Below are positions 3,901 to 39,779 of a stretch of DNA of 64,000 nucleotides, piece after piece; the first letter of the stretch is position 1; each line of letters opens with the position of its first letter. The notes beneath the pieces were generated by a model. It was not told the origin of the DNA. It was given only the letters and a program-made list of their open reading frames with translations, and made no database searches. The position numbers were made by a program, and so were the translations under genes. Source of the stretch: Kiritimatiellia bacterium (GTDB lineage Bacteria; Verrucomicrobiota; Kiritimatiellia; RFP12; UBA1067); contig JAQUCE010000011.1 in the NCBI GenBank assembly GCA_028686345.1, positions 1,355-65,354 on the forward strand, written 5' to 3'.

Positions 3901-3927
3901 CCGGGAGGTGACACGCTATGCTGATAA

Positions 3928-7249: not shown

Positions 7250-7900
7250 AAAGTTGTCTATCGGGTGACAGCTCATAGCCTCTGGCGTATTCGCATCTGC
7301 CGCATGACCTTCAAACTTCACTCAGTTGAAAATGCAGGGTTGGCGGAACTTGTCCGGCGTAGTTCCGCCATGCAACTGCATAGCCCCGCTTGCGGGCGAA
7401 GCCGGGTTGCGGAACGAAGACGGATGAGCCAAACAAAGATTATGAAATCCCATGGCAAGCCTTTGACGACCAATCGCCCGGCATCCGCTAATTGCTTCAT
7501 CCTCCTTCGCCAAGGCTACGGCGGACACGATGGAAGCAACACTACACCCCGGGGCGCGCCTTTCATGAGACTGTTGCAAAATGCCGCTGGTAGAGCGGCT
7601 ACTACGCTGAACGACAACCCTTGCACTCCGCAGTGCAGCGCGTTTGTAGTAGTCGCTCTGCCAGCGACATCGGTTGACGACGATGTTGACCGACGATTGG
7701 GATCATGCGGGGGCTCGTCCACCAGCATCGTCGCCGCTATCGTAAACCGAAGACGCGGCTGACCATACTGCGTGACTTGATCAATCGCATGCCGCCCGCA
7801 GTCGCCCGCATAGCGGACGACTTCCTTGACCCGCGCCTTGGTTTCCAACCGCTAATTTCTCAGCCAGGACGACGACCTTCCGCACGCCACACAAACTCTT
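7250..7900. repeat. Composite intergenic repeat, copy B, between tonB and the pseudopilin operon
   Basis: Modules shared with other intergenic gaps: cttgcgggcgaagccgggttgcgg...gatgagccaaacaaagattatgaaatcccatggc...gccgctggtagagcggct...aacccttgcactccgcagtgcagcgcg...gcgacgatgttgaccgacgattgggatcatgcg..gctcgtccaccagcatcgtcgc...gtcgcccgcatagcggacgacttcc. The same modules recur at 30690-31230, 23460-23700, 42950-43170 and 30205-30290, and inverted at 3330-3450. Confidence 0.55.
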
Positions 7901-11441: not shown

Positions 11442-12098
11442 TCACTCCGCCCAGGTGCGGATATCATCCTTGGTGCCCCAGACACCGTCGGGTCCGGCTG
11501 AGGCGGCGCCAATCTCCAGGTTATACCCCAGTGATTCGACTTTGGCTTTCAGGCGCACTGATAAAGGCAGCCCATCCGTGGGGTTTGTGCCGAACTCAGC
11601 CTCAAAACTCTGCAGGTCAGTGGTCGGTGTGTTCTGACTGCCGCTGCTCTCAAAAAACTTCTTAACATCTGAAGTAATCGTCTCTTTACCGCCTCGGGCG
11701 AGCAGGATGGTCTCAATTCTTTTTCCCTCTGTATTATACTGAATAAAAGAGAGGCTGCGGCGGGCGGAGTTACCAAAATCATCCCCTTCAAAACCGCTGG
11801 ATGAAAGAGTATAAAACCTGAGTTCACTGCCTTTAAAACTCTGCGAGCCGGGGAGTTGATCACGCAGCTCCTTTGGGATGGAGCGCGCATCAACAGCCTT
11901 GGCCGCATCGCGCTGGATCGAGCCGATCAGCGAGCGGATCTGCATAAAGGCATCCGCCCGCCGCACGCCGGTGCGCCAGGCCATGCTGGTCTGTTGAAAG
12001 AGCATGGCCAGCATCATCACAATCACCACCAGGATCGAGGATGCAACAAGCACCTCAATCATGGAAAATCCCGCGTTTTTATTGGTTCTGTAGTTCAT
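11442..12098 (-). CDS. Minor pseudopilin (GspJ/PulJ-like), prepilin-type N-terminal cleavage/methylation domain
   Basis: MNYRTNKNAG|FSMIEVLVASSILVVIVMMLA leader plus hydrophobic helix. Confidence 0.6.
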   Translation of the reverse strand: MNYRTNKNAGFSMIEVLVASSILVVIVMMLAMLFQQTSMAWRTGVRRADAFMQIRSLIGSIQRDAAKAVDARSIPKELRDQLPGSQSFKGSELRFYTLSSSGFEGDDFGNSARRSLSFIQYNTEGKRIETILLARGGKETITSDVKKFFESSGSQNTPTTDLQSFEAEFGTNPTDGLPLSVRLKAKVESLGYNLEIGAASAGPDGVWGTKDDIRTWAE

Positions 12099-12142
12099 GG
12101 TCGCTTTTCACCCTCAAGTGTTGATGCGCATCAGGGGCGCTG

Positions 12143-12667
12143 TTACGGCGTGCCCTGGAACATCGCCTCCGCATAGTAGATCGGGTTGTTGGAGTATTGG
12201 TTATAGTTGTTCAAATTTTTCAGCTCGGTTGACTGCACCATAATGCCCATAATCCGACCAGAGAAGCCGGGCACAATCGTGCAGACAACCCGGTAGCGTC
12301 CGCCCAGCTTGGGCGCATCGCTCCAATCGGTCTCTTTAATTTGGCTCCCCATAAACCCTGGCCACACGTTACCGGAATTGCCTTTGACAGAGTCAGCCTT
12401 GGGAACCTGGGCGGACCATTGAGCCCAGGTGATATTGGTCTGCGAGGCAGCGGCCACGGCCTGGTTGAGCACGTAATCGGCCAGCATGCTCTGCTTTAGA
12501 TCAGCCTGTCCCTGAGTACTCTCACGCAGACCAAGGGGATAGAGCACTACCATGCTGAGAATGCCGACTGACATGACAAAGACCGCCATGTTGACCTCCA
12601 TCAGGGAGAAGGCTGCCCGTTGCTCTTTTTTCTTGCATAATTTCATACGATCACCACTTGCTGTCAT
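12143..12667 (-). CDS. Minor pseudopilin (GspI-like), prepilin-type N-terminal domain
   Basis: ...KEQRAAFSLMEVNMAVFVMSVGILSMVVLYP. The track ORF starts with GTG at 12694; ATG starts at 12667 or 12646 are more likely. The start is uncertain. Confidence 0.5.
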   Translation of the reverse strand: MTASGDRMKLCKKKEQRAAFSLMEVNMAVFVMSVGILSMVVLYPLGLRESTQGQADLKQSMLADYVLNQAVAAASQTNITWAQWSAQVPKADSVKGNSGNVWPGFMGSQIKETDWSDAPKLGGRYRVVCTIVPGFSGRIMGIMVQSTELKNLNNYNQYSNNPIYYAEAMFQGTP

Positions 12668-13496
12668 ACTCGACTTTACCCTCTTTTGTGACACGAACAG
12701 TTGTGCTTTTATATGGAGGAGAGGTTTCAGCGATTGCGATTGTAACCCTTTTCAGTGCGCGGCCATCCGGCAGGAAGGTGAGCACCTGAATCCTTTTCTC
12801 ATCCTCCTTCAGATCTTTAAACTCGAATAATTTCGGCAGAGTCTGAACAGGCGCGGCTTCAACCCCGTACGAATCGCCAACGCGCCAAACATCCCCGCCA
12901 GCCCGGACAGGCACATTGCGGTTGATCTCAAAACACCAGGCATTGATCACATCCTCTTTGGGCCCTGTGCGGGGTTTATACGCTGACTGCCGCCCGGAAA
13001 TCATATCCTTTGAGCTGACCACCCATGGATAGACAAAGGAGAAGCCGCCCTCAGTGTTGGTCAGATTGTACAGACGGAAGCCGCCTTTATAGCTTGAGGC
13101 GTTCTCCAACGCAACAGTGCTGAACATGGTGTCCAGCGAGTTGAACTCGTCAATCAGGTATTGGTTGCCCGGCGGTATAAACGAGATCTTGCCGACCTCT
13201 TTACAAACAACATAGGAGGGGATCACCGCCTTCTTGCTGCCGCCGAGATCCGCGTCAACAATGCCGCTGACCTCATTGTAAAGCACCACACTAACGCGCG
13301 CGTTGTCCATGCAGGCGCGCTGCCTGGCCAGTGTCAGAGTGTTGGCCAGATGCTTGACAGCACCACGCCGCGCCATGCCGCGTGCCGCGCCAAAATAACT
13401 GGTGACCGCCAGGGTGGTCAGCAGCCCCATGATCGACAGCACTGCCAGCAACTCCAGCAAAGAAAAGCCAAACTCGGTTTTTTTTCTCGCACCCAT
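12651..13496 (-). CDS. Minor pseudopilin (GspH-like), prepilin-type N-terminal domain
   Basis: MGARKKTEFG|FSLLELLAVLSIMGLLTTLAV. The internal ATG at 13496 was chosen. Confidence 0.6.
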   Translation of the reverse strand: MGARKKTEFGFSLLELLAVLSIMGLLTTLAVTSYFGAARGMARRGAVKHLANTLTLARQRACMDNARVSVVLYNEVSGIVDADLGGSKKAVIPSYVVCKEVGKISFIPPGNQYLIDEFNSLDTMFSTVALENASSYKGGFRLYNLTNTEGGFSFVYPWVVSSKDMISGRQSAYKPRTGPKEDVINAWCFEINRNVPVRAGGDVWRVGDSYGVEAAPVQTLPKLFEFKDLKEDEKRIQVLTFLPDGRALKRVTIAIAETSPPYKSTTVRVTKEGKVEYDSKW

Positions 13497-13519
13497 ACTC
13501 TCTCTCACCCCCCTGCAAA

Positions 13520-14011
13520 TCATCGGGCCACCCTGACCGAATCAGTTGCCAGATTATACTCCACCGTGAAAAACTTGAACTCCCTGGTGTTGCGCGGGTC
13601 AGCGTAGCCCAGCGGCAGATCGGTCTTGCCCTGCTCCAATGCCTGCCTAACCGACATCCGGGAACCATCGACTCTGGTTAAAATCGCCGAAGGGTCGACA
13701 TAGTTGTTCTTGGACTTGAACATCTTCTTGAAAGCCTTCTGATTGTTCTCGCCTTCCACCTTGTAAAGTGTCTGTGAATTGCCAACCCTTTTCATATCAG
13801 AGAGCTCAAACGGCCACTCATTCTGCTGCGCCCGGTAGTTGTTGAGCGCCATCTGCAGACCGCTGACCATCGCGTCGACCCTCTTTTCGCGCATGGTGCG
13901 CATTGACCTCATCACCGCGCCGGTTGCCAAGGTGGTAATCATCGCCATCACCGCCACAACCACCAGCATCTCCACAATGGTAAAGCCTTTTCGATTATTT
14001 TTTTTATTCAT
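13520..14011 (-). CDS. Pseudopilin, GspG family (prepilin-type N-terminal cleavage/methylation)
   Basis: MNKKNNRKG|FTIVEMLVVVAVMAMITTLA, with an AGGAGA RBS 8 nt upstream of the ATG. Confidence 0.7.
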   Translation of the reverse strand: MNKKNNRKGFTIVEMLVVVAVMAMITTLATGAVMRSMRTMREKRVDAMVSGLQMALNNYRAQQNEWPFELSDMKRVGNSQTLYKVEGENNQKAFKKMFKSKNNYVDPSAILTRVDGSRMSVRQALEQGKTDLPLGYADPRNTREFKFFTVEYNLATDSVRVAR

Positions 14012-14270
14012 ACGTCTCCTTTGGTCTCGTACCTATAACTCGTTCACTTGGCCGCGGTTGCGTGACTATAACTCAGGGGCGGGGTCGGGGTCGAAAAGCG
14101 AAACAATCGACTTGGCGATATCACGACTTCACGACTTCCGATTTCCAGGCTGCCGAACTTCGAGTTATCTCCTCGTTTTTTCGCAGCGCGCTGCGCACCC
14201 GGTTTGCCGCCTGCCTTCGATGCCGATGCCGACTCCGATGTTCTCCGCCCCTAACCTCTAACCCCTGGCA

Positions 14271-14912
14271 CTACTGCTCTGATATCACCTGCGCGTGATT
14301 CCAGCTGATCAGATCATCGTAGGGATAGCGGTTCCTGGCCTTGGGGTTTCTGCTCTCAAAATCATCCTGTCCGTCAGGGCCGCGCGACCAGACAATAACA
14401 TTGGCGCGGATGGTCAGTCCTTTGGGCGAACCCTCTTTGGCATCAACATAGCCGTCATTGTCAATATCCAGCCGGAACTGGATTCTGCGATCCTCAATCT
14501 TCACTCCGTCAAATCCAACCTGGGCGGCGGTGGAGAGCGACGGGTTGCGCCGCAGAGCATCGCGCCCCCACTCATCGAGAAAGCCAAAGCGGTCAAGGCT
14601 GGTGCTGTTGAGGTTGCCAAGATCAACCTTAACGTCCAGCAGGTGGTTCTGCGCCAACACCTGGCAGACCTTCTCATCCATCTCCAGCGCGTTGATCATA
14701 GTCTGATGCCACCGCCGCTCCTTCTGCAAGTAGAGGTTCAAGGCTGTGTGGGCATCGCTCACCGCGCCCTGCGCTTTGGCGCGCTTGGCGCTTCTTTTCA
14801 AGTGGCCCACCGAGGTCATCATGGCAGCGGAGATCATACCGATTATGCCGATCACCACCAGCAACTCCACCAGCGTAAAGCCGCCCCGCCCGTTATTTTC
14901 AAATTTTTTCAT
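14271..14912 (-). CDS. Pseudopilin, GspG family
   Basis: MKKFENNGRGG|FTLVELLVVIGIIGMISAAMM, and C-terminal ...VIVWSRGPDGQDDF. The track ORF begins with TTG at 14939; the ATG at 14912 was used. Confidence 0.65.
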   Translation of the reverse strand: MKKFENNGRGGFTLVELLVVIGIIGMISAAMMTSVGHLKRSAKRAKAQGAVSDAHTALNLYLQKERRWHQTMINALEMDEKVCQVLAQNHLLDVKVDLGNLNSTSLDRFGFLDEWGRDALRRNPSLSTAAQVGFDGVKIEDRRIQFRLDIDNDGYVDAKEGSPKGLTIRANVIVWSRGPDGQDDFESRNPKARNRYPYDDLISWNHAQVISEQ

Positions 14913-14939
14913 ACTGTGAATCATCCTACTCGCCTTCAA

Positions 14940-15254
14940 TCCTGATCCCGACTCTGGCGGAGCACTTACCGCTTAAAACTTACCACTTACCGCTTAAAAC
15001 TCGCCTTCGATCCCGACCCCGACTCCGCTGGCCGCTGGCCACTGGCCGCTAGCCGCTGGCTGCCTTGTAGGGCGCGACTGCGAACGTGCAGTGCTTCGCA
15101 AGCCTCAGCTAGCAATCGTCTGGTCAGAAAAGCACCATCCCGAGGTCATGGCCCTCGGCTACAATGCTTCGCAAGCAACTTCCAACCTCCAACTTGCCGT
15201 CGATACCGACCCCGACCCCGAGTCGCACCAACCCCCTAAACCCTAAACCCCGGC
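14940..15254. repeat. Low-complexity spacer packed with short direct repeats and G/C-tract motifs between pseudopilin genes
   Basis: Segments read: cttaccgcttaaaact twice, gctggccgctggccactggccgctagccgctggc, tgcttcgcaagc twice, ccctaaaccctaaacccc. The motif cgccttcgatcccgaccccgactcc also occurs at 14215-14245 and 15197-15232, and the related ggggcggggtcggggtcg at 14084-14101. Confidence 0.5.
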
Positions 15255-16313
15255 CTAGCGGTCAAAGCCGACAATGTCATCCTTAGTCCACCCGGAGACC
15301 AGCTTCAGGTCGTCCGAGCTGAGCGACTCAAGCGGTATCCAAGGAGGGAAGGTATTTCCATCTGAGCCTGCTGACCAGATCCGGTAGCTCTGGTAGGGCG
15401 GGGCAGAGTAGTAGAAAAAGTCATTGCCCCAGCCATCCACAACCGTGGTGCAAAACAGAATGGTTTTTTGTCCATCTTTGGAGTACGCACCCCTGAATTG
15501 ATGAGAGCCGCCCATGGAGTCCTGCACATCTCCGCCGCCTTGAAGCACAGTGTTCATAATGGTCGGCGCATGACCGCTCAAAATGCCCTCAAGGTTGGGG
15601 AGCCACTTGGCGCACTCGCGCATCTCCAGCTCGCGCTGGCCTTTGAGCGCATTGCGCAGTTTGTCCTTGTTGCCAGCACCGATGCGTGAGCTCTTGTTAT
15701 GAAGCCCCCACTGTTTACTGTGATAAAACCCTTCGATCGGCTGATCCCTGCTAAAAGCACTGGTTTCCGGGGGAATCCCTACCAGCTCCACACGGGGCAG
15801 TAGAAAAGAGAGCAAGCCGAACTTGAACATCTTCACTTCCTCCCACATGGCATTTGGTATGGTTGCCGCATTGTTGTAAACTTCGTTCACGGTTCGAATC
15901 TGCTGATCGCGAAACTTCTCGTTGACAAACTCATCATAGGTCTGGGGATAGGGGTACTCAAAGGAGACCGGCTGAGCGCGCGCCGCCCAGCGCGCGGCAG
16001 CCGTTTTTTGACCGCCGCTCCAGGGGATTTTCTCGCCACCCTGCGCCCCGCGGTCATCCGAAGCGTTCATGGGATCCGGGTTGGCATACAACGGCACTGG
16101 AGGGTAGGTGCCGTAGGAGGAGTAAAACCCTGAGATCGCATTCTGCAACCGCTCCATACGCGCCTTGGTCTGGGCTGTTTTGGAGTTTTCAGAGACCGCG
16201 CTGAACAGCTTGAAGACTGATGCAATCAAGATGCCGATAATCACCAGCACCACCATCAGCTCCAGCAAGGTGAAAGCGCGCTTACTGTTAAATTTATTAA
16301 CCTTTGCACTCAT
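15255..16313 (-). CDS. gspG: Large GspG-family pseudopilin (352 aa)
   Basis: KRAFTLLELMVVLVIIGILIASVF, and C-terminal GspG signature DGWGNDFFYYSAPPYQSYRIWSAGSDGN. GGAGGA RBS. Confidence 0.7.
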   Translation of the reverse strand: MSAKVNKFNSKRAFTLLELMVVLVIIGILIASVFKLFSAVSENSKTAQTKARMERLQNAISGFYSSYGTYPPVPLYANPDPMNASDDRGAQGGEKIPWSGGQKTAAARWAARAQPVSFEYPYPQTYDEFVNEKFRDQQIRTVNEVYNNAATIPNAMWEEVKMFKFGLLSFLLPRVELVGIPPETSAFSRDQPIEGFYHSKQWGLHNKSSRIGAGNKDKLRNALKGQRELEMRECAKWLPNLEGILSGHAPTIMNTVLQGGGDVQDSMGGSHQFRGAYSKDGQKTILFCTTVVDGWGNDFFYYSAPPYQSYRIWSAGSDGNTFPPWIPLESLSSDDLKLVSGWTKDDIVGFDR

Positions 16314-16327
16314 AAATATCCTCCATG

Positions 16328-16346
16328 AGCAAGCAGGATGCTTGCT
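16328..16346. promoter_or_regulatory. 19-bp perfect palindrome AGCAAGCAGGATGCTTGCT immediately upstream of the RBS of the 352-aa gspG-like gene
   Basis: 8-bp arms with a 3-bp centre. Related copies at 23749-23767 and 30088-30106. Confidence 0.35.
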
Positions 16347-16481
16347 CTACTTCAAACTTGATTTCTCCAAACGCGCAGCGTTTGTGACTAAAGCAGCGGG
16401 CCCATAACCATGAACTTTTCAGTGAGAGCGAATGCCGTCCGCACATCGCTCAGCCGCATTTGGTTTCCGCAGCTAGCTGCT

Positions 16482-17786
16482 TTAGCTCGATGATCCGAGT
16501 GTATTGATAATCTGAATCATAGGCATGAACATCGCGATCACAATCGTTCCGACCACCACAGCCAGCACAATGATCATCAGCGGCTCAATCACGGATGTCA
16601 AACCAGCGACAGCGTTGTCCACCTCATCGTCGTAGGTTTCCGCAACACGTCCAAGCATGTCAGGCAGCGCGCCGGTCTCCTCGCCCACCTCTACCATCGA
16701 GATCACCATCGGGGGGAAAACCTTACAGGCTGAGAGCGGCGTGGTCATGCTCTCACCCTCTTTGACGCTGTCGTGCACCGACTGAATCGCGCGGGAGATC
16801 ACCGCGTTACCGGTGGTGTCGCGCACAATTGTCAGCGCCTGCAGTACCGGAACACCCGAGGAGAGCAGAGTTCCCAAGGTGCGGGTCATGCGGGAAATCG
16901 CGGTTTTCCTGATCAATCCGCCGAAGAGCGGCATATTGATTTTGGCAACATCAAGGATATAAGAGCCGTTTTTTGTTTTGGCAAAGACTTTAAACAGCGT
17001 GACAAAGACCGCAATGCCAATCAGTACGACTATCCAGTTGGCAACCACCAGATTACTGGCGTCCATCACAAACTGTGTGATCGCCGGCAGCGGCTGACCA
17101 GCCAGCAGATCATTAAAAATGTCGCTGAACTTAGGAATCACCGCGACCAGCAAGAACCCGGTGATACCCACCGCGGCGATCAGCACCACAACCGGATAAA
17201 CCATGGCGCCCTTGACCTTGTTCTTGATCTTCTCCGCTTTTTCCGCGAATTCGGCGAGACGGTTGAGCACCACCTCCAGCACACCGCCAGCCTCACCGGC
17301 ACGCACCATGTTGATGTAGAGATTGTCGAAAATTTTGGGGTAGTTGGCGAGCGACTCGGAGAAGGTGCTGCCGCTCTCAACCGCCTCACCCATGCCGCCC
17401 AACGCATCACGCAGGGTCGGATGAGCGGTCTGGCGCTTGAGCACGTTTAATCCACGCAGCAACGGCAGACCCGCGTCCACCAGCGTGGCGAGCTGCCGGG
17501 TCAACACTGTCAGGTCTTTTTGCTTTACCCTGGGCCGCAGAAATTTCGGCATCTTAAACTCAATGTTGGTCTTGCCTAAGCTCTTCTTTTTGGCACCCCC
17601 GGCGGCTGCTCTGGGCGCGGCTTTCTTAGCCGCTGTGCCGCTTCCGCCACCAGCCTCGCCGATCGCGGTTGGAAACAACCCCATGCCGCGGACAGCCGCA
17701 ACGGCCTGCGCCTGGGTCGCGGCTTCCACCGTGCCGCGGCTCTCTTTACCTGTCGAATCTTTAGCAATATACGCAAACTTGGGCAT
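16482..17786 (-). CDS. gspF: Type II secretion / type IV pilus inner-membrane platform protein (GspF/PilC family)
   Basis: MPKFAYIAKDSTGKESRGTVEAATQAQAVAAVRGMGLFP is a typical PilC/GspF N-terminus. Two GspF domains and a polytopic membrane region. The start was trimmed from 17846 to the internal ATG at 17786 (GGAG RBS). Confidence 0.8.
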   Translation of the reverse strand: MPKFAYIAKDSTGKESRGTVEAATQAQAVAAVRGMGLFPTAIGEAGGGSGTAAKKAAPRAAAGGAKKKSLGKTNIEFKMPKFLRPRVKQKDLTVLTRQLATLVDAGLPLLRGLNVLKRQTAHPTLRDALGGMGEAVESGSTFSESLANYPKIFDNLYINMVRAGEAGGVLEVVLNRLAEFAEKAEKIKNKVKGAMVYPVVVLIAAVGITGFLLVAVIPKFSDIFNDLLAGQPLPAITQFVMDASNLVVANWIVVLIGIAVFVTLFKVFAKTKNGSYILDVAKINMPLFGGLIRKTAISRMTRTLGTLLSSGVPVLQALTIVRDTTGNAVISRAIQSVHDSVKEGESMTTPLSACKVFPPMVISMVEVGEETGALPDMLGRVAETYDDEVDNAVAGLTSVIEPLMIIVLAVVVGTIVIAMFMPMIQIINTLGSSS

Positions 17787-17994
17787 AATCAGCTCCGAAA
17801 ATAGTATGTTATCTCTTATGTCTCCGCCCGGCTTCACGCTGTTCAACAGCTACAAAAACAGACAAAAACACCCCTTCTCAAATTTCATGCTTACAGCATA
17901 CCACAGTATGCACCTGACAGTAAATAGCTGTTTTTGCTTTAAAATGCGGTGGTAAGTAATTGAAACCTTAGCCTCTCTGTGTCATAATACGGCA

Positions 17995-27083: not shown

Positions 27084-29741
27084 ATGAAGCGAATATTATG
27101 CTTAGTGCTCGGAATGACAGCTGGTCTCTGCCTAGGGGCAGAGCTTGAGACACTGGTTGACTTCACGCAAGCTGATCATGGTTGGCGCGGTAATCACTTC
27201 ACACGGGTGGTAGAACCAAAGAGCCCCATGACCGTGGAACTGATTGGCGAAGATCCGTGGATCGAGGGGCCGGCCATAGCTGTATCCTCTTCCGCTGATG
27301 CCAAAAAACTTTTGCTAACACTCCACGCAGAGTCGCCTCGTGATGGAGCCTGCCAGCTCTTTTACGCCGCGCCGGGCCAGCACTTTTCGGAGGGCGCGGC
27401 AGTATACTTACGTCAGCTCCCTGAATCGCGCTCAACCTATCAAGGCATCATTCCGTTGGTCACCGACACCTTGCGCTTCCGTATTGATCCGCCTGGCAGC
27501 TCAGGCATTTTCACCCTGCGCTCCCTCCAAGCACTGCCCCTGACTCCACTGACAGCACTGCCATTTACTGGGCCGTCACCTGTCTTGCTCTCGGAGCTTG
27601 CGCCCATGATTGAGGCGGGCAACACCAAGGTGATCCATGATGCCACCCGCTGGAATACATTCGCGGTTTTCATCAATGGCCACAAGATGGCTGAATCCAA
27701 TCCAGCGGAGAGCGTGGTTTATTGGGACAATCAGCAGGCCATGACTGTGTTGCTCTCTGAAACAACTGTTGAGCAACGCGCCGACGGATTCACCGTAAGC
27801 GCCCGCGGCCAGGATCAAGGGGGAGCCCTGTGGCAAATCTCCCGTGTTTTCACTGTTGACCGCAATGCCGTGCGCATAGAGACTACGCTCTCTGTGAGTG
27901 AGCCCCGTCAGGTTGTCCACCTGCCATGGCTGACTCTCTTTGCCGGAGTCGGCTCCTTTGGCGAATCAAAGAGCCAGGCACTGCTGCCCGGCGTGGAGTA
28001 TCTTGCCAACGAGCCCTCCAGCAACGAGAAAGAGATTCGCGGCACGGCGGCCAACCGGCGGATCACAGCAGCCTACAAGAGCTGCTTTCCCATGATGGCG
28101 ATCGCCGCTGACGGGCACTGGCTGGCGGTTGACTGGCAGCAGGGCGAGCTGCCGGCTTCGCCGCTCTTCGACTCCCCTGACCGCCTGTTCCACTCCGGCG
28201 GCCATGTGTTCGGACTCTGGTCGCCCGCGGTTGGCGAGCATCGTTTTGAGGGCGAGACAGCTGTCTACGGGAGCATCCACCTGGCAGCTGGCCACCCATA
28301 CCACTGTGCCGCAGCGGTGCGCGGCGGCCAGGGCGATGTTGTAACCGAGGCGATCGGCGGTTATGTGGCGCGCTTTGGCTTGCCGCCTCTGCCAGAGTAC
28401 ACACCCGGGTTTGAGGGCGCGGTGCGACTGCTGGCAGGGGGCTGGCTCGATTCATCGGCGCGCCACAACACAAAGTGGAGGCATGCGGTGTGGGGCGAAG
28501 CCTTCCCGTCAGCGCTCGCAGAGGATGTTCCCGCCTATCTGCTGTGGCTGGCGGCTCATGCGCCGGAGGCGGCTCTCAAACAGCGGCTGCAAGCGAGCGC
28601 GCGCGAGGTGATCGCGGCGCTGCCCCCGGGGAATCCCGGCATCAACGGCGTCTCGCATGTCAACCGCATCACCGGCGCCCTGCTTTACGGCGGCCTGGAA
28701 CGGCTGGTGGCCGGAGCGGCTGGACGGGTCAAAGCGCGCGCAGCGCAACTCGCACAAACCGGAGGTGTCGCGCGTTACACCGCAACCCCTGGCAAGCCTG
28801 ACTATGCCTCCACTCTGGGAAGTGACCACTGCAACGGATTCACGGCCATGTCGGTGGAGAAGCTGATGCAGGACGCAAGCCTGACCGGCGATCAAACGGC
28901 GATTGCCGCGGCCTTGTCAGCCCTGGATCAAATGACCGCTCACTATGCCGGAGAGGTTCCGCGCGGTGCCCAACCTTGGGAAATGCCGCTGCACACGCCG
29001 GATATCGTGGCAGCGGCGCGCCTGCTCCGCTGCTATGTCCTGGGCTACCAGCTGAGCAACAACACGCGCTATCTGGAACAAGCCCGCTACTGGGCATGGA
29101 GCGGGGTGTCAATGGTTTACCTCGCCCCTCCGACCGCTGGCCCGGTGGGGCTTTACGGGACAATCGGTGTGATTGGCGCCACCAACTGGCACTCCCCTAA
29201 CTGGATTGGGCAGCCAGTGCAGTGGTGCGGTTTGGTCTACCGCTCGGCACTGGCTGATCTGGCGCGGGTTGACGCCGCGCAGGGCGCTCTCTGGCAGCAA
29301 TTGGCGGGTGGCATCACAATCAGCGGCTTACAAATGTGTTTTCCATTGGATGACCCTGAGCAGCGCGGCGGCTTGCTGCCCGACTATTTTTTGTTACAGG
29401 CGCAAAAACGCGATGGACCGGCCATCAACCCAGGGACGCTGCAAGCCCACTTGGCGGAGGCGTATGGCAAGACCCCCATGTACACCCTGACGCGTCTCGC
29501 CAACGGAGTGCTGGTGCATGCGCCCGGCACAGTGGTTCAAGAGCAAGAGGCCGAGACTAGCACTAGGATTACCATCACAGCCTGGCCCGAAGAGGAGTAT
29601 CGCATTTTAATCACAGGCATTGCCGGGCCGCCAGCTAAGATAATGTGGAACAACGCGCCTGTTGCACCCCGCTTTTTAAACGAGGCTTGCGCGATGATTG
29701 TTCCTCTAAAAGGATGCGGCACGCTGGAGCTAGAACAGTAG
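27084..29741 (+). CDS. Large secreted hypothetical protein (885 aa), no domain recognised
   Basis: Strong RBS (aaGGAGaaattATG), signal peptide MKRILCLVLGMTAGLCLGA, and a long uninterrupted high-GC ORF. Confidence 0.6.
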   Translation: MKRILCLVLGMTAGLCLGAELETLVDFTQADHGWRGNHFTRVVEPKSPMTVELIGEDPWIEGPAIAVSSSADAKKLLLTLHAESPRDGACQLFYAAPGQHFSEGAAVYLRQLPESRSTYQGIIPLVTDTLRFRIDPPGSSGIFTLRSLQALPLTPLTALPFTGPSPVLLSELAPMIEAGNTKVIHDATRWNTFAVFINGHKMAESNPAESVVYWDNQQAMTVLLSETTVEQRADGFTVSARGQDQGGALWQISRVFTVDRNAVRIETTLSVSEPRQVVHLPWLTLFAGVGSFGESKSQALLPGVEYLANEPSSNEKEIRGTAANRRITAAYKSCFPMMAIAADGHWLAVDWQQGELPASPLFDSPDRLFHSGGHVFGLWSPAVGEHRFEGETAVYGSIHLAAGHPYHCAAAVRGGQGDVVTEAIGGYVARFGLPPLPEYTPGFEGAVRLLAGGWLDSSARHNTKWRHAVWGEAFPSALAEDVPAYLLWLAAHAPEAALKQRLQASAREVIAALPPGNPGINGVSHVNRITGALLYGGLERLVAGAAGRVKARAAQLAQTGGVARYTATPGKPDYASTLGSDHCNGFTAMSVEKLMQDASLTGDQTAIAAALSALDQMTAHYAGEVPRGAQPWEMPLHTPDIVAAARLLRCYVLGYQLSNNTRYLEQARYWAWSGVSMVYLAPPTAGPVGLYGTIGVIGATNWHSPNWIGQPVQWCGLVYRSALADLARVDAAQGALWQQLAGGITISGLQMCFPLDDPEQRGGLLPDYFLLQAQKRDGPAINPGTLQAHLAEAYGKTPMYTLTRLANGVLVHAPGTVVQEQEAETSTRITITAWPEEEYRILITGIAGPPAKIMWNNAPVAPRFLNEACAMIVPLKGCGTLELEQ

Positions 29742-29749
29742 TTTCAGTG

Positions 29750-31245
29750 CACAGCTAAAGCAGCTAGTCGGGCCACCAAAAGAATTTGTGTGGTGTGCGG
29801 AAAGTCCTCGCTCTCATTCAGAAGTTTGTGATTGAGAGCCCGCTGCTACAGTAACAAACGCTGCGCGGTTGGGGAAACGAAGACAAATTTTCAAGAACCA
29901 ATCAGAGAACAAAGAGCACGCTTCCGGCTCCGAGCTTCGCTTTTACGCCGTGACAGGGAAGCGTGAACAACAAACGGCTGCTACGTAAGGTTTGTTGTTC
30001 AGCCTTTCCGTGTCCGGCGTAAAAGCGAAGCGCGAAGACGGAAGGCTGCTCCAAAGCGGATTATTGAGACGTTACTGTAAAAGTGATAATGGAGTAGTGC
30101 AAGCATCTTGCTTGCAGAAAACATTTTCATTCAAGCTATAGGTGTTTAGGCTGTAGGGGTTTAGGGTTCCTAATCACAATCCTAATCGTAATCCTCGTCT
30201 CTTTCGGCAGACGATGCTGTGCGACGATGTTGACCGACGATTGGGATCATGCGTGGGCTCGTCCACCAACATCGTCGGCACTATCGTCAACCAAAGGCGA
30301 AGCCGATATCCAGTAGGTCCGGTTTCCAACCGGACATCTTTGATTGAAAATCGGAGCTACGTTTTTGCGGCTATTACTTCTCTCTTTTACTGCGCTATAT
30401 TTAGCCGCAAAAAAGCGCAAAAGGCGCAAAATCTTCCCCAACCTTTTTTAACTACGAAACACACGGAAAACACGAAAGGGGGTACGCTTTGTAGGGGTTT
30501 CTCACAGAGGCTCAGAGAACACAGAGCGCAAAGTATGTTACTCTGAGAACTCTGCATGGCACGCCGTAGCCTTGGCGTAGGAGGGTGCCTCTGTGAGAGA
30601 TAAAAAAATTGGTTGCGGCTATGCTGCGCTAGGTTCCTTGTGGTTTCAAAAATTAAAGTGCAACCATTTTGACCCCCTATGTCCAGTGATCTGTCATTCG
30701 CGTGTCGCCCGCATAGCGGACGACTTCCTCCTCCGCGTCTTGTCAAATGGAGTAGGCGCGGAAGGAGGTCAGTCGCTATGCGGCTGACTATACCGCGCAC
30801 CTGATGGCTCGAATGTCACCCGCAGTCGCCCACGACTTCCTTGCTTCGCGCCTACCGTGCAACCTGCAAGCTTCATGACAGTGGAAACGTGTAGGGTTGG
30901 CGGCCCTTGTCCGGCATAGTTCCGCCATGCCACGGCGTAGCCCCGCTTGCGGGCAAAGCCGGGTTGCGGGCAAAGCCGGGTTGCGGGACGACGACGGATG
31001 AGCCAAACAAAGATTATGAAACCCCATGGCGCGCCTTTGACGAACAAGCGCCGGGCATACGCTAATTGCTTCTGAGAAGCAACCCTACACCCCATGGCGC
31101 GCCTTTCACATGCCTGTGCAGTGCCGCTGGTAGAGCGGCTGCTACACCGAACGATAACCCTTGCATTCCGCAGTGCAGCGCATGTGCGGTAGTCGCTCTG
31201 CCAGTGACATTGGTTGGTCATAATAATTATCACTGTTTGACAGCC
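29750..31245. repeat. About 1.5-kb compound block of stacked intergenic repeat modules with no convincing coding gene
   Basis: It contains the 29915-30050 long imperfect palindrome (gcttcgcttttacgccg..gaacaacaaac / gtttgttgttc..cggcgtaaaagcgaagc), the TGCAAGCATCTTGCTTGCA palindrome (30088-30106), gcgacgatgttgaccgacgattgggatcatgcg..gctcgtccaccaacatcgtcg (30225-30285), ccagtaggtccggtttccaaccggacatc, the inverted copy of 20780-20950, the ctctgtgagagataaa..ggttgcggctatgctgcgctagg module, the inverted cactggacat...gcactttaa module, the tandem gcaaagccgggttgcggg pair, and the ccgctggtagagcggctgctacaccgaacga module. All ORFs here are inside multi-copy DNA. Confidence 0.6.
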
Positions 31246-31248
31246 TGC

Positions 31249-32370
31249 TCACAGCACCCGCTGTATGCCAACCGGAACTGATGCCGGACGCGGGGGAACG
31301 CCGGTTGTATGGCAGTCAGCACACTGCAGCCGATGGATGTTATGCTGGCTGGTGCGGGAGCGGTAGGTGGTGTCCATGGCCATGACATCCTGATTGCAGG
31401 AGGTAAAGCGGGGATGACAGGTGACACAACTCCCGCGCGTATCGTTGGAATGCGGCTTGTGACAGGCAGCACAGCTGATCCCCTCATGCACACCGATCGG
31501 TGTACGGTCGTCGCAGCTACCAGCGTGACCATGGGAGTTGGGTGCATGACACTGCATGCACAGGCGCTGACGCGGGTCGCTTGAAACCGTAACCAGACGC
31601 TCCCCGTCAACAATGCGCGGTATGCTTAGCCCGTCAATCGGCAAGGCGCATTTTTCCTGACGCACATAGAATGCAAGCACATCACGGCGGAGTGACGGAG
31701 CATTGGTTGCGCCAACGTCAGTTGTCTGCGCGGGTTCCCGGCTCCGCTGGTACGGCGACCCCTGTGCGTGCAAATTGTGGCACGCCTGACACGGTATGGT
31801 GGGCTGGAGAGCCATCGCCGGATTCACCAACTGCCACGGTCCGGTAATATTCAGCGGTGTGACAATATCTTTGATCCGGTTCTCATTAAACATCGCGTGA
31901 CACCGCAGGCAATCTTCCGCCATCTGCTCAGCCTGATTATGCTTTTCATCCAGGAATATACCGGCATAGTTGATGCCATGTCCGCCGCTTTGCCAGTGAG
32001 CAAACTCCTTGGCGTGGCAGCTCTGGCAGTTATTCATCACCCGCAGGTTCTGTTCCTCGGTCAATCGGATCTCATCATGCCGCTGGTCAGCAAGGTGATA
32101 AAAGATGCGTTTGGTGTTCTCCTTTAAGGCGTGCCAGGAGTCAGCTGAGCCGCCATGACAATCTTTACAGGAGACATTGCGATGCGCAGAGTTGGTCCAG
32201 CTCATGTATGACCCATTCATCTCATGACAGGAGACGCATGTTTTCTCTGCCGGAGTAAACTCAAAATAACCCACTCCTCCCAGAAATGAACAGACCAGAA
32301 AAACAGTCATGAGTGCCAGCGGCAGAATATACCAAGCTCGCTCTCTTCGATTTTCACTCATCTCTTTCAT
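31249..32370 (-). CDS. Membrane-anchored multihaem c-type cytochrome (9 CxxCH motifs; NapC/NirT/NrfH-like N-terminal module extended to a nonahaem), cytochrome subunit of the adjacent flavoprotein dehydrogenase
   Basis: N-terminal TM helix (WYILPLALMTVFLVCSFLGG). Haem motifs CVSCH, CKDCH, CQSCH, CLRCH, CQACH, CMQCH, CAACH, CVTCH, CADCH. Confidence 0.8.
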   Translation of the reverse strand: MKEMSENRRERAWYILPLALMTVFLVCSFLGGVGYFEFTPAEKTCVSCHEMNGSYMSWTNSAHRNVSCKDCHGGSADSWHALKENTKRIFYHLADQRHDEIRLTEEQNLRVMNNCQSCHAKEFAHWQSGGHGINYAGIFLDEKHNQAEQMAEDCLRCHAMFNENRIKDIVTPLNITGPWQLVNPAMALQPTIPCQACHNLHAQGSPYQRSREPAQTTDVGATNAPSLRRDVLAFYVRQEKCALPIDGLSIPRIVDGERLVTVSSDPRQRLCMQCHAPNSHGHAGSCDDRTPIGVHEGISCAACHKPHSNDTRGSCVTCHPRFTSCNQDVMAMDTTYRSRTSQHNIHRLQCADCHTTGVPPRPASVPVGIQRVL

Positions 32371-32387
32371 CCATTAACCCTTCAATT

Positions 32388-34040
32388 TTAAGTACGGAAA
32401 CGCCCGCCGCCCCGCCACTCCCGCGCAATATACTCGCCGACCCAGAACCCCAATGCCATGATTGTTAGCACAGGGTTAAAACCGCCGTTGGCCACATTCA
32501 GACTGCCGTCTGCCACAAAGAGGTTATCAATTCCATGGAGCTGCCCATAGCGGTTGGTGACAGAGCTCTTGGGGTCATCACCCATCCGGCAGGTGCCAGC
32601 CTGGTGCTGACCACCGCCCGCCGAACGTCGGGAGGCGGGCGAAGGGGCGCTGCGCTGGATACTCTTGGCGCCGACCTCCTGCAGCAACTGCTCAGCCTTA
32701 CCGGCGATAAACTGCCCAATCTCCGCATCGTGCGGATGCTTGGTGCCTGAGGTGCGCAGCAGCGGGATGCCCCAGTAATCTCTCTTTTGCGGATCCAGCA
32801 TCACTCGGTTATCAAAAACCGGCATCTCCTGCACCGGCCCCACTACCCGGATAAAGTGTTTATACTGCTCCCGCTGAAACTTTTTGTGCGCGATCCCCCA
32901 GCGGGCTGCCCCGGCCGGGCGCTGATGTGTAAAGGAATAGGGCATGATGATAAAATCATTGGCCAGCATGCCGCCTCCATGCAGTCCGGGATTGCCATGA
33001 TTAAAGTCACAAAAAGCCACGCTCGCGCCTGGACCGGCCTCCTCATAGACCTGCTCATTCATCAAGCCAAAGGCCCCCACATAGCAGTGCCCCTGGAGGT
33101 TACGCCCCACCCAGTCGTTATTATTTCCAGCCCCGCCGGGAAAGAGCTTTGACTTGGAGCTGAGCAGGATTCGCGCTGTCCCGCTGGCACTGGCTGAGAG
33201 CACCACCAGATCGGCGCTCTGCTCCTGCAAGCGGTCATTGATATCAAAATATTTGACACCGCTGGCACGCCCCTGATCGTCAACCATCACTTCACTCACA
33301 ACCGCATCGGTGCGCAACTCACACAATCCAGTTGCCAAGGCAGCGGGAATGACCGTATTCTGCGTGCCACACTTGGCATTAACCGGGCAGGCATAGCCGC
33401 AGCAAGTACGCATATGAATGCACTGAGGCCGCCCTCCATACGGAATGGAGTTCCTGAGCATGGGAATTGGAAATGGATGCCAACCCAGCCGCTGCATACC
33501 GGGAATCAGTAGCTGCGCCTCACGGTCGTAAGGAAATGCCGGCATGGGCCGCGACCGCGCGCGCTGGCCAGCAAAGGGATTGGCTGTATCGTCGCCCGCC
33601 ACACCCACCTCCCACTCAGCACGATCATAGCAATGCTCCAAATCTTCGTAAGAAATTGGCCAGTCATCCAGGGTCGATCCATCCAGCGCGCCATAAATCG
33701 ATTTCATCCGGAAATCCTGCGGCATAAACCGCCAGGCCTGCGCCCCGTAAGTCACTGTGCCGCTGCCGACGCACGCCACGTTGTTGGGGGTCACCACTCC
33801 ATAGCTGCCATTATCAAATTCATGCGCCTTGCGCGAGGGCTTATTCTCCGGCCCCGGCGCCCGGGTCAACTTGGGCGAGCGCTGCGAGATCAGCTCGTCA
33901 TCGCCGGTATCGTGAAAGTTCTGCCACCGACCCCGCTCCAGCAGCACGACCGACAAACCAGCCTCTGCAAGCACCTTTGCCACCACGCCGCCTCCGGCGC
34001 CGGCACCAACAACAATTGCGTTCACATGCTTATTGGACAT
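32388..34040 (-). CDS. GMC-family FAD-dependent oxidoreductase (gluconate 2-dehydrogenase flavoprotein subunit-like)
   Basis: N-terminal FAD Rossmann motif NAIVVGAGAGGGVVAKVLAEAGLSVVLLERG. 550 aa with a GMC-like C-terminal region. Confidence 0.8.
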   Translation of the reverse strand: MSNKHVNAIVVGAGAGGGVVAKVLAEAGLSVVLLERGRWQNFHDTGDDELISQRSPKLTRAPGPENKPSRKAHEFDNGSYGVVTPNNVACVGSGTVTYGAQAWRFMPQDFRMKSIYGALDGSTLDDWPISYEDLEHCYDRAEWEVGVAGDDTANPFAGQRARSRPMPAFPYDREAQLLIPGMQRLGWHPFPIPMLRNSIPYGGRPQCIHMRTCCGYACPVNAKCGTQNTVIPAALATGLCELRTDAVVSEVMVDDQGRASGVKYFDINDRLQEQSADLVVLSASASGTARILLSSKSKLFPGGAGNNNDWVGRNLQGHCYVGAFGLMNEQVYEEAGPGASVAFCDFNHGNPGLHGGGMLANDFIIMPYSFTHQRPAGAARWGIAHKKFQREQYKHFIRVVGPVQEMPVFDNRVMLDPQKRDYWGIPLLRTSGTKHPHDAEIGQFIAGKAEQLLQEVGAKSIQRSAPSPASRRSAGGGQHQAGTCRMGDDPKSSVTNRYGQLHGIDNLFVADGSLNVANGGFNPVLTIMALGFWVGEYIAREWRGGGRFRT

Positions 34041-34236
34041 CTGTCCTCCTCCTGGTTTTAATCACCTATACTCTAGAACGTGCTTTCTAAAAACATATTA
34101 TCAGAGGTCAATCTTTGTCCCAATCCTAATCTCAATCCTTATCTCTTTCAGCCAGCCACAGGCAGCCGTTGTTTGATTAAGATTGAGATTAGGAACCCTA
34201 ACGCATACAGCTAAAAACCTAAACCCCGACAGGGCG

Positions 34237-34854
34237 CTAGACGCTATCATAGCGGTTCTGTCCGATCACCCGCGGATACTCAAGGCCCATCATCCGATAA
34301 CTGACATAGTTTCTGTTACCGCCATGTTTAGGGCTGCCGTAATAACCCTGCATTGTGTGGTCGCAGACCATCCGGAAAAAGCCGGCCGCATCCTGATCCG
34401 ACCAGATTTTTTTAGAAGCCTTGCCCGACTCCAGAGCTTGCAGCACCCTTGTCTGCTCATCCCATTGCAATGCTTCGAAAACTCTTCCGAACATCTCCCT
34501 GCTCGTTTCCTCAATCCGTTTGAGCCCCGCGCGGTAGCTCTGCGTCTGCTCCCGATAAGGCCCGCTCAACTGCTGGTCAATAAAGTTGACCACGCCCGCC
34601 GCACTGGCGCCGCCAAACTCATCAGCCGGGATGATCTGCTCTGTTACCAGGTCAACCAGATCGGCCTCCGACTGCGTCAGCACCAGCCAGGGACCACTCG
34701 GTGGTGCTCCCAGCCGTCCCACCAGCTTAGCTCCGCCGACTCCAGCCGCCACGCCACCCGCGGCCGCAGCCAGGATCTTAAGGCAATCACGGCGCGACGA
34801 ACCTGCTTCTTTTTTACGCTTCATCTCGGGCTCCTTCGATTTGACGCTTCGCAT
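34237..34854 (-). CDS. Gluconate 2-dehydrogenase subunit-3-like small subunit with twin-arginine (Tat) signal
   Basis: Tat motif SSRRDCLKILAAAAGGVAAG. Length and position (first gene of a gamma - flavoprotein - cytochrome trio) match the GADH gamma subunit. The alternative start at 34824 is also possible. Confidence 0.65.
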   Translation of the reverse strand: MRSVKSKEPEMKRKKEAGSSRRDCLKILAAAAGGVAAGVGGAKLVGRLGAPPSGPWLVLTQSEADLVDLVTEQIIPADEFGGASAAGVVNFIDQQLSGPYREQTQSYRAGLKRIEETSREMFGRVFEALQWDEQTRVLQALESGKASKKIWSDQDAAGFFRMVCDHTMQGYYGSPKHGGNRNYVSYRMMGLEYPRVIGQNRYDSV

Positions 34855-34939
34855 CTATAAACTGCAAGATATGTATTAGATCGAGACATGACAATATGGT
34901 ATCATGTTTGAAGTTTCCTTAAAACCTCAAAAGGATATT

Positions 34940-38789: not shown

Positions 38790-39779
38790 TTACTGGCTTT
38801 CGCTGATCAGCTTATAAAGTCCGGGTTTCCAAACTTTCTCAAACTGCTGGGGAATTCGCTCGCGGGCCAATTCCCGGAATGGTTCAGAATCAATGGCAAC
38901 AAACTCAGCCCCGTCAGCCTCAAGTTTCTGGCGGTAACCAGCTTCAGCCCGCTCGACCTCGAGGTTGTGCCAGCGGGTTGTGTCTTCCAACGCCCGTAAC
39001 AGGAGCCCGCGCTCCTCCGGGGTAAAACGACGCTCCAGGTTGGGTCCGATGGAGGGCACATAAAAGCTGATCAGATGGCGCGTCTCCATGATGTATTTCT
39101 GGACCTCCTGCAGATGGTTGGCGTAGATGGTGGCGAGCGGGTTCTCCTGCCCCTCCACCACCCCGAGCTTGAGCGCCATAAAGATATCGGTGAAGGGAAT
39201 CGGAGTGACATTGGCTCCGAAGGCCTGCCATGATTTCATGTAGATCTCGAGTTCAGGAACGCGCAGCTTGAGCCCTTTGAGATCATCCAGGGTCAGCACC
39301 TTGCGTGAGGTGGTCGTGAGGTAGCGCGGTCCACGGAACCAGGGCTGCATGAGCCGGGCACCCGATTTTTTTTGCATGACGCGTCGGACCTCTTCGCCAA
39401 TAGCCCCATTCCAAACATGTTCGACATGCGCGTAGTCGCGCCAGAGGAAAGGTGCCTCAAAGGCGCCGTACTGGGGCGCATACCAGCCGATAATCGCCAA
39501 TCCGGTCACAATCATATCAACGCTGCCGAGCTTCAATCCCTCGATCAGCTCCCGCTCATTACCCAGCTGACCGCTGGGATAGAGGCGCACCGCCATTTTG
39601 CCGTTGGATTCGGTTTTGACCTGCTCCGCAAAACGAACCGAGGCCTGATGCAGCAGCTCAGAGGGTCCTGGCACATACGCAACCCGCAAAATCTTGGGCT
39701 TTACCTCAGTGGGTCCACAGCCGCATAGCCACAGGGCTCCCAACACCGCCATTACTGTCAATCGATTATTTGCATTCAT
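38790..39779 (-). CDS. dctP: TRAP transporter substrate-binding protein, DctP family (lipoprotein)
   Basis: Lipobox ALWLCGCG, DctP-family sequence pattern (..RVAYVPGPSELLHQASVRFAEQVKTESNGKMAV..YPSGQLGNERELIEGLKLGSVDM..). Confidence 0.75.
   Translation of the reverse strand: MNANNRLTVMAVLGALWLCGCGPTEVKPKILRVAYVPGPSELLHQASVRFAEQVKTESNGKMAVRLYPSGQLGNERELIEGLKLGSVDMIVTGLAIIGWYAPQYGAFEAPFLWRDYAHVEHVWNGAIGEEVRRVMQKKSGARLMQPWFRGPRYLTTTSRKVLTLDDLKGLKLRVPELEIYMKSWQAFGANVTPIPFTDIFMALKLGVVEGQENPLATIYANHLQEVQKYIMETRHLISFYVPSIGPNLERRFTPEERGLLLRALEDTTRWHNLEVERAEAGYRQKLEADGAEFVAIDSEPFRELARERIPQQFEKVWKPGLYKLISESQ

Follow-up and report, generated by a model that had tools for sequence, protein, structure and literature searches.

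Described complexes and the Kiritimatiellia operon

Membrane-bound flavin adenine dinucleotide (FAD) sugar dehydrogenases have, to our knowledge, been described from hardly any bacteria other than aerobic Proteobacteria that use ubiquinone. The proteobacterial enzymes drive an incomplete 'oxidative fermentation' and are the basis of direct-electron-transfer biosensors. An operon of this type is described here from a Kiritimatiellia bacterium (contig JAQUCE010000011.1), within a window of 64 kb that is the whole stretch of DNA analysed. The described systems closest to it are the FAD-dependent glucose dehydrogenase of Burkholderia cepacia (FAD-GDH, gamma-alpha-beta; 6a2u, 8hdd), the fructose dehydrogenase of Gluconobacter japonicus (FDH; 7w2j, 8xcm), gluconate 2-dehydrogenase (GADH) and sorbitol dehydrogenase (SLDH). 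They have in common with it a small twin-arginine translocation (Tat) 'hitch-hiker' subunit of the Gluconate_2-dh3 family, and a gene for a haem c subunit that comes last in the order small subunit, large subunit, cytochrome. As in FAD-GDH and FDH (E ~1e-44), the catalytic subunit is a flavoprotein of the GMC family that lacks a signal peptide and carries three 3Fe-4S cysteines and a His/Asn pair. The electron-transfer subunit of the known complexes is a trihaem class-I cytochrome c, with 'three heme c units' (PMC9727119). In the FAD-GDH/FDH type this cytochrome has a mass of ~45 kDa, whereas the Kiritimatiellia operon encodes an anchored nonahaem protein of 373 amino acids (aa) with an NrfH-like module. 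The hosts differ as well, being aerobic Proteobacteria for FAD-GDH and FDH and menaquinone-type, largely anaerobic or glycan-degrading bacteria for the operon described here. The gluconate dehydrogenase Cj0414/Cj0415 of Campylobacter jejuni, composed of a GMC protein and a Tat small subunit, feeds the respiratory chain of a non-ubiquinone organism. We know of no dedicated cytochrome gene in that operon, whereas the window operon encodes a multihaem subunit.

The three genes are all located on the minus strand, and coordinates refer to positions in the whole window:

34237..34854, minus strand: small 'hitch-hiker' subunit, 205 aa (Pfam PF13618 Gluconate_2-dh3, E 4e-31, residues 62-190)
32388..34040, minus strand: catalytic GMC-family FAD flavoprotein, 550 aa (Pfam GMC_oxred_C, E 6e-20; GMC_oxred_N, E 3.5e-11)
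31249..32370, minus strand: membrane-anchored nonahaem c-type cytochrome, 373 aa (nine CxxCH motifs; AlphaFold mean predicted local distance difference test score, pLDDT, 82)

An earlier note on this DNA had placed the three open reading frames (ORFs) at exactly these positions and lengths. The profile searches that it proposed (PF13618, GMC_oxred_N/C, Cytochrom_NNT) each returned a score above the Pfam cut-off. We consider it probable that the three products form one periplasm-facing, membrane-bound flavoprotein dehydrogenase complex, in which the nonahaem cytochrome would be a menaquinone-reducing replacement of the trihaem subunit.

The small subunit and the flavoprotein

Two short elements of the dehydrogenase pair bear on its export and on its cofactors:

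34777..34797, minus strand: twin-arginine motif SRRDCLK of the small subunit (from the translation; orthologues have [SDN]RRxF/C[LI]K)
33387..33422, minus strand: Cys-rich loop CIHMRTCCGYAC of the flavoprotein, residues 207-218, with the predicted 3Fe-4S ligands Cys207, Cys213 and Cys218 (from the alignment to the alpha subunit of the B. cepacia enzyme, BcGDH)

The match to PF13618 and the motif SRRDCLK bear out the earlier assignment of the small subunit as a Tat protein of the Gluconate_2-dh3 family, and a Tat-like motif is found in 24 of 25 orthologues. The real start of the protein may be the second ATG, at 34824 (MKRKKEAGSSRRDCLK...). The GMC protein, by contrast with this Tat-bearing partner, has no signal peptide. 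Its GxGxxG motif starts at residue 12, and the protein opens directly with this FAD fold at all loci. A Tat motif on the small subunit together with a signal-less GMC protein is how the known complexes are arranged for 'hitch-hiker' export.

The large subunit had likewise been read as a GMC flavoprotein, in line with its two Pfam matches and with its nearest solved relatives. These are the large subunit of fructose dehydrogenase (8xcm/7w2j; 8xcm_A, E 3e-44) and the alpha subunit of B. cepacia FAD-GDH (6a2u_B, E 8e-44), although its identity to solved catalytic subunits is only ~30%. In the crystal structure of BcGDH, Cys212, Cys218 and Cys222 coordinate a 3Fe-4S cluster that relays electrons from the FAD to the cytochrome subunit (PMC6719666). 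These residues align with Cys207, Cys213 and Cys218 of the window flavoprotein, and the catalytic His476 and Asn519 have their counterparts in His479 and Asn522; all five are invariant in 28 orthologues. Two other features of BcGDH are replaced. The His105 that links the FAD covalently, an attachment that may not be universal, is Thr97 in the window protein and Ser in most relatives, and the Cys213 of the inter-subunit disulfide is Ile. The flavoprotein belongs to the FDH/FAD-GDH clade and has its three cysteines for a 3Fe-4S cluster. Together with the small subunit, it clearly falls within the described FAD-dependent dehydrogenase complexes.

The nonahaem cytochrome

The CxxCH motifs of the cytochrome start at residues 45, 68, 115, 154, 194, 271, 300, 315 and 350. 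In the six frames of the window, this is the sole stop-to-stop frame of at least 60 aa that bears a CxxCH, so that nine motifs are far more than chance would give. They are invariant in 30 homologues at 40-77% identity and are also kept with 120 homologues (39-80%). Nine further histidines (63, 80, 92, 131, 144, 201, 295, 307 and 346) are conserved in the homologues, so that each haem could have two His ligands. The homologue alignments show neither a CxxCK motif nor any other hint of a catalytic haem. With all nine motifs of the CxxCH type and nine more histidines conserved, a catalytic role of the NrfA/HAO kind was rejected, and the cytochrome is predicted to be a pure electron-transfer protein. 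It is 100% identical to the NCBI entry 'MAG: multiheme c-type cytochrome [Kiritimatiellae bacterium]' (MAG, metagenome-assembled genome), and database labels for the family are 'hypothetical protein' or 'multiheme c-type cytochrome' only. Its parts are as follows:

32260..32334, minus strand: N-terminal transmembrane anchor, residues 13-37, with RRER just before (model helix 5-38, pLDDT ~93)
31894..32331, minus strand: NapC/NirT/NrfH-like tetrahaem module, residues 14-159, haem motifs 1-4 (PF03264 Cytochrom_NNT)
31270..31560, minus strand: C-terminal four-haem segment, residues 271-367, haem motifs 6-9, resembling c7-type/polyhaem cytochromes

The anchor ends ~8 residues ahead of haem motif 1, and all orthologues have a hydrophobic segment ending ~10 residues before haem 1. 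The NapC/NirT/NrfH/CymA proteins, of which Desulfovibrio vulgaris NrfH is solved (2j7a/2vr0), likewise have one N-terminal helix followed by four similarly spaced CxxCH motifs. They are, however, tetrahaem proteins of ~150-200 aa, whereas the window cytochrome is more than twice as large and has five more haems. Cytochrom_NNT matches residues 14-159 by a small margin (26.7 bits against a cut-off of 24.1), and the other Pfam matches are to several generic multihaem families. The NrfH model TIGR03153 is covered nearly in full (E 2.5e-14) with 53.5 bits, far under the equivalog cut-off of 134.2, and the outcome was the same for three further family members. With a profile of the cytochrome family, D. 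vulgaris NrfH was the best PDB sequence (E 3e-6), and NrfH is the best and nearly the sole solved relative both by sequence profile and by Foldseek. The N-terminal 160 residues, comprising the anchor and haems 1-4, are thus NrfH-like by four methods, with which the three further family members agree. This upholds the view of the earlier note that a NapC/NrfH-like module is followed by five additional haems.

The C-terminal segment resembles other multihaem proteins. Its similarity to Geobacter GSU1996 (3ov0/3oue) was detected with phmmer on the domains 3oue_A (E 5e-5), and Pfam Cytochrome_C7 matches residues 268-319. The decahaem DmsE model (TIGR03508) matches residues 261-356 weakly (44.3 bits against a cut-off of 192.2). 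GSU1996 and DmsE/MtrA resemble the segment of haems 6-9 only, with scores far under the family cut-offs. DmsE and MtrA are in addition periplasmic decahaem proteins that act with a porin, whereas the window cytochrome is membrane-anchored and has no porin or outer-membrane partner nearby.

No match to Cytochrom_C or Cytochrome_CBB3 was found in the cytochrome with Pfam, its matches being of the NapC/NrfH and c7/c3 types. With the motif positions and the model helix, this agrees with the initial description of a protein with an N-terminal transmembrane helix and nine CxxCH motifs that is not the trihaem type. The cytochrome lacks the trihaem class-I feature and stays under the NrfH equivalog cut-off; the complex is a variant of the known FAD dehydrogenase complexes and not simply another member. 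The earlier note knew of no characterised example of this combination, and no paper linking a GMC/Gluconate_2-dh3 dehydrogenase to a NapC/NrfH-like or multihaem subunit was found in the open-access literature, where absence is not proof.

Operon structure, conservation and host range

On the minus strand, the ORF check gives the 5'->3' order Tat-signal small subunit, GMC flavoprotein, cytochrome. Only 17 bp separate the GMC stop codon from the start of the cytochrome gene, and this gap contains no terminator-like site; a spacer of 196 bp lies between the small-subunit and GMC genes. A terminator scan of the operon and its flanks revealed no terminator inside the operon. From the 17-bp gap, the lack of a terminator and the synteny kept across phyla, the three genes behave as one unit, and the cytochrome gene is probably part of the same transcription unit as had been supposed.

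The cytochrome family has 263 matches in a 90%-clustered database and 59 representatives at E<=1e-30 among 1.84 billion 50%-identity clusters. Related loci (designated by L numbers) were collected by a genome scan and by exact look-ups. L026 (Melioribacteraceae; 23% identity, E 8e-4) was set aside and excluded from the family; it carries, at 1324-7485, three adjoining multihaem ORFs with 14, 6 and 8 CxxCH motifs that are unrelated to the nonahaem family. In ~30 of the 32 informative loci, the GMC gene is located directly upstream of the cytochrome gene, and every locus with a sufficiently long flank has the small-subunit gene preceding the GMC gene. When the ORFs are taken at their greatest length, the genes of the triad overlap or lie a few tens of bases apart at most. 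The associated GMC proteins show 51-71% identity to the window flavoprotein, and the pairwise identities of GMC proteins and cytochromes are correlated (Spearman rho 0.84). This fits inheritance as a unit, although a correlation would be expected from shared phylogeny by itself too.

The triad occurs in a Kiritimatiellae-like bin, in Limisphaerales and Opitutaceae (Verrucomicrobiota), in many environmental Bacteroidota and in Ignavibacteriota, as well as in a planctomycete-like contig (judged by its PSCyt/PSD1/DUF1501 neighbours) and a Dormibacteraeota-labelled MAG. Gut and termite Bacteroidales carry it too, one example being the complete genome of Parabacteroides sp. ASD2025 (NZ_CP187555). 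The cytochrome of this order is truncated at the C-terminal end. It has eight haems in L017 and L018, where haem 9 is lost, and seven in L019, L020 (Parabacteroides sp. ASD2025), L021-L023 and L033/L034, where haems 8 and 9 are lost. The hosts of the shortened forms are Tannerella, Dysgonamonadaceae, Tannerellaceae, Parabacteroides and Prevotella-labelled MAGs. His346 is lost in all of them and His295 is replaced by Tyr in L021-L023, while the flavoprotein and the small subunit are unchanged. The membrane-proximal module is retained in all cytochromes of the family, and the distal haems are the ones lost. The shortened form is abundant in metagenomes, annotated merely as 'hypothetical protein'. 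In L018, a Dysgonamonadaceae MAG, a 1352-aa hybrid two-component regulator is encoded between the GMC and cytochrome genes (1926-5984), with Reg_prop, Y_Y_Y, HisKA, HATPase, response-regulator receiver and AraC helix-turn-helix domains. Regulators of this type are the classic glycan sensors of Bacteroidetes polysaccharide utilisation loci.

Proposed mechanism and alternatives

Domain identities, conserved cofactor ligands, export and anchor signals and the conserved operon are directly supported by the data above. From these we infer the formation of a physical complex, the entry point and direction of the electrons, menaquinone as the acceptor and the class of substrate. In the proposed mechanism, the folded, signal-less FAD/3Fe-4S GMC protein would cross the membrane together with the small subunit, whose twin-arginine signal would direct both as a 'hitch-hiker' pair. 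Export of the cytochrome would be separate, with its uncleaved N-terminal helix keeping it anchored, and the pair would dock onto it. The FAD would oxidise a hydroxyl of a sugar, glycoside or sugar derivative, probably freed by the surrounding glycan-degrading enzymes. Electrons may then pass from the FAD to the 3Fe-4S cluster, along the haem wire and through the NrfH-like tetrahaem module at the membrane surface to the menaquinone pool, with this module running as a quinone reductase. The nonahaem protein would stand in, in menaquinone-using lineages, for the ubiquinone-reducing trihaem class-I cytochrome of the proteobacterial enzymes. The lineages carrying the operon use menaquinone and not ubiquinone, which provides a rationale for swapping out the class-I trihaem subunit. 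The partner of an NrfH-type protein is a reductase, whereas that of the nonahaem cytochrome is a dehydrogenase, implying the opposite direction of electron flow. NapC/NirT-type cytochromes can run towards quinone: this was proposed for Nitrosomonas cM552, and the reversibility of CymA was shown.

Several observations weigh against this mechanism, the main weakness being that the NrfH quinol-site residues are not conserved. Lys82 and Asp89, which we take to be these residues in D. vulgaris NrfH, align with Leu82 and Arg88 of the cytochrome, in a helix where the alignment is uncertain. The haem-1 Met of NrfH (CxxCHxM) is present in the window cytochrome (CHEM), but the position is Ile in >90% of the family. 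Without conservation of this Met and of the Lys/Asp pair, which distinguishes the nonahaem family from NrfH, a quinone site, if present, would be built differently. The characterised NrfH, NapC and CymA mainly oxidise quinol, and cultured Kiritimatiellae are known as fermenters. Menaquinone synthesis, c-type cytochrome maturation and a menaquinol-oxidising terminal reductase of the MAG are beyond what the window can show. The five extra haems exceed the obvious need of a simple quinone reductase, and the last two are dispensable in gut Bacteroidales. At one locus, L002 (5143-7104 of a 772-kb contig), an intervening GMC gene is lacking and the cytochrome gene comes ~200 bp after the small-subunit gene; this could reflect a GMC deletion, or a cytochrome serving a flavoprotein encoded elsewhere. 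Finally, none of the related loci reveals a universal accessory gene beside the operon. Neighbours vary by lineage, so that the substrate cannot be deduced from context.

As nine haems go beyond the needs of a quinone reductase, the cytochrome might act as a wire to soluble periplasmic partners (cytochromes, reductases) or to extracellular acceptors, with no reduction of quinone. The earlier note had raised periplasmic or extracellular acceptors, rather than ubiquinone directly, as a possibility and had suggested a search for additional multihaem cytochromes nearby. The likeness of the C-terminal segment to c7/GSU1996 'nanowire' modules and, weakly, to DmsE/MtrA would suit such a wire, as would the divergence at the NrfH quinol-site residues. 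The surroundings speak otherwise: the 64-kb window contains no second CxxCH-containing ORF, the 6-8 kb around the operon are free of additional multihaem ORFs at every related family locus, and no MtrB-like porin or outer-membrane cytochrome was seen. Gut Bacteroidales dispense with distal haems 8 and 9 and always keep the membrane-proximal NrfH-like module, which is of a quinone-interacting type and, with the anchor, is invariant. The invariant proximal module, the losable distal haems and the lack of a cytochrome gene nearby together argue against periplasmic or extracellular acceptors, and we regard this explanation, and with it the earlier suggestion, as unlikely. A different arrangement is suggested by L002 and by L018, where the regulator gene splits the GMC gene from the cytochrome gene: the cytochrome could be a general membrane docking or electron-entry hub for several Tat-exported flavoprotein pairs or other periplasmic dehydrogenases, and not a dedicated subunit. 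Pairs of GMC and Gluconate_2-dh3 genes with no cytochrome gene are indeed common in these phyla. Such a hub is nevertheless quite improbable given the tight adjacency in ~30 of 32 loci, the correlated divergence of GMC proteins and cytochromes and the fact that the associated GMC proteins are a well-conserved group.

The flow of electrons could also be the reverse, with the NrfH-like module oxidising menaquinol and the flavoprotein acting as a periplasmic terminal reductase of some oxidised substrate. The well-characterised NrfH, NapC and CymA, to which the tetrahaem module is homologous, are all quinol dehydrogenases feeding periplasmic reductases, and many of the host lineages are anaerobic. 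The flavoprotein, however, shares with the FDH/GDH dehydrogenases their alcohol-oxidising His/Asn pair and their 3Fe-4S site, and these enzymes, like GMC enzymes generally, oxidise alcohols. Judging from standard potentials, the reduction of a keto-sugar by menaquinol would be thermodynamically uphill. Reverse flow is therefore given very little credence, and a dehydrogenase complex that delivers its electrons to menaquinone is the preferred reading.

Gene neighbourhood and substrate

The neighbours of the operon are mainly carbohydrate-related across the loci. AP_endonuc_2 TIM-barrel genes adjoin it in L001, L002 and L004, genes of the 3-keto-disaccharide-hydrolase family (3keto-disac_hyd) occur in two related loci, and a SusD gene (L022) or a NamZ gene (L019) is found directly upstream. 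Other neighbours encode GH2, GH28, GH43, GH78, GH97, apiosidase-like, glucuronyl esterase and SASA proteins, GFO/IDH/MocA oxidoreductases, tripartite ATP-independent periplasmic (TRAP) transporters and the hybrid two-component regulator. In the environmental Bacteroidota L006-L016, URO-D-family and creatininase-family genes are located directly upstream of the triad on the same strand, and a 'sugar-binding cellulase-like' gene and a conserved 773-aa protein are encoded downstream (~1.9-3.7 kb and 7-10.7 kb, in locus coordinates). The 773-aa protein has no Pfam match, its N-terminus is glucosamine-6-phosphate isomerase-like by eye, and blastp gave no match to any protein of the window, including the 885-aa and 1238-aa neighbours. 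The triad and these flanking genes may constitute a larger operon hinting at a specific substrate. From the gene context, a sugar, glycoside or sugar derivative is a plausible class of substrate.

In L003 and L027-L029 (Dormibacteraeota-labelled, wood-metagenome), a gene for a pyrroloquinoline quinone (PQQ)-dependent dehydrogenase and its own dihaem class-I cytochrome c gene are present at ~7.6-12.8 kb. Both styles of periplasmic dehydrogenase are thus encoded in the same genomes, a few kb apart.

The whole window is a glycan-utilisation region, whose contents include BNR sialidase-like, SASA esterase-GH123 fusion, GH5-like, GH42-like, TRAP, GntR and type II secretion/pilin-like genes. A minus-strand block at 38790-63223 encodes three BNR sialidase-like proteins, Laminin_G_3/PKD proteins, the SASA acetylesterase-GH123 fusion, the GH42-like protein and a weak URO-D-like protein. 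With the TRAP transporter genes and a GntR/FCD regulator that accompany it, the block resembles an island for the use of sialoglycans or host glycans. In L031 and L033/L034 too, the operon has SASA or TRAP genes beside it. A pilin/pseudopilin-like gene cluster with N-terminal methylation motifs and a type II secretion system F-type platform protein occupies 11442-17846. The transporter genes and the large proteins near the operon are located as follows:

38790-39779: TRAP transporter gene DctP
61329-63223: TRAP transporter genes DctQ and DctM
27084-29741, plus strand: large protein, 885 aa
34904-38620, plus strand: large protein, 1238 aa
7922-10900, minus strand: large protein, 992 aa

Pfam and NCBIfam gave nothing significant for the three large proteins; the sole matches of the 1238-aa protein, to DUF6259 and DUF5696, are sub-threshold. 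They may be unclassified glycan-active enzymes.

Non-coding features of the operon and its flanks

An Rfam scan of operon and flanks matched no known RNA family. The other elements identified there are the following:

34866..34894, minus strand: sigma-70-like promoter match 5' of the small-subunit gene, within the divergent intergenic region (consensus scan, 9/12 positions)
34121..34197, minus strand: hairpin in the spacer that separates the small-subunit gene from the GMC gene, stem of 16 bp, no U tract (from an RNA fold of this spacer)
7159-7175, 30177-30193 and 34133-34149: sites of the GATTAGGATTG/GATTGAGATTAGGATTG motif, recurring in intergenic regions
29914-30051: inverted repeat with 62-nt arms, 79% complementary, 3' of the cytochrome gene
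30704-30788: inverted repeat with 33-nt arms, 3' of the cytochrome gene
30942-30975: tandem 17-mer, 3' of the cytochrome gene
31021 and 31089: 21-mer direct repeat, 3' of the cytochrome gene

The promoter match is weak evidence, the number of promoter-like matches in the divergent intergenic region not being above the shuffled expectation. The spacer hairpin consists of two inverted copies of the motif GATTAGGATTG. This motif or its variant GATTGAGATTAGGATTG has 5 matches in the intergenic regions of the window for 0.08 expected. L031, the closest long-contig homologue, also has a long spacer at the same position. The hairpin is probably a repetitive extragenic palindromic (REP)-like or miniature inverted-repeat transposable element (MITE)-like insertion, or an element of mRNA processing or stability; as its stem is not followed by a U tract, a terminator or operon boundary is not favoured. 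Downstream of the cytochrome gene, ~1.5 kb (29742-31248) are repeat-rich and contain no convincing ORF and no Rfam family.

Significance for glycan-degrading bacteria

We tentatively suggest, as a possibility for which somewhat less can be claimed than for the complex itself, that these operons represent a hitherto unrecognised, multi-phylum class of periplasmic flavoprotein dehydrogenases. An NrfH-like cytochrome would be used 'backwards' as a menaquinone reductase and would give extracytoplasmic sugar or glycoside oxidation an entry into respiration. If so, the enzyme class would also comprise glycan degraders, human-gut Bacteroidales among them, that rely on menaquinone and are largely anaerobic, and another instance of a NapC/NrfH-type module working as a quinone reductase would be added. 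The flavoprotein would be naturally pre-coupled to a wire of 7-9 haems, useful for bioelectrochemistry and the engineering of direct-electron-transfer enzymes, and this wire might let several flavoprotein modules or other partners dock. For the carriers, glycan-degrading anaerobes such as gut Parabacteroides/Tannerellaceae and marine or sediment Kiritimatiellae, the complex would add a periplasmic carbohydrate-oxidising input to the respiratory chain, and the oxidation could be coupled, for example, to fumarate, nitrite or low-oxygen respiration.

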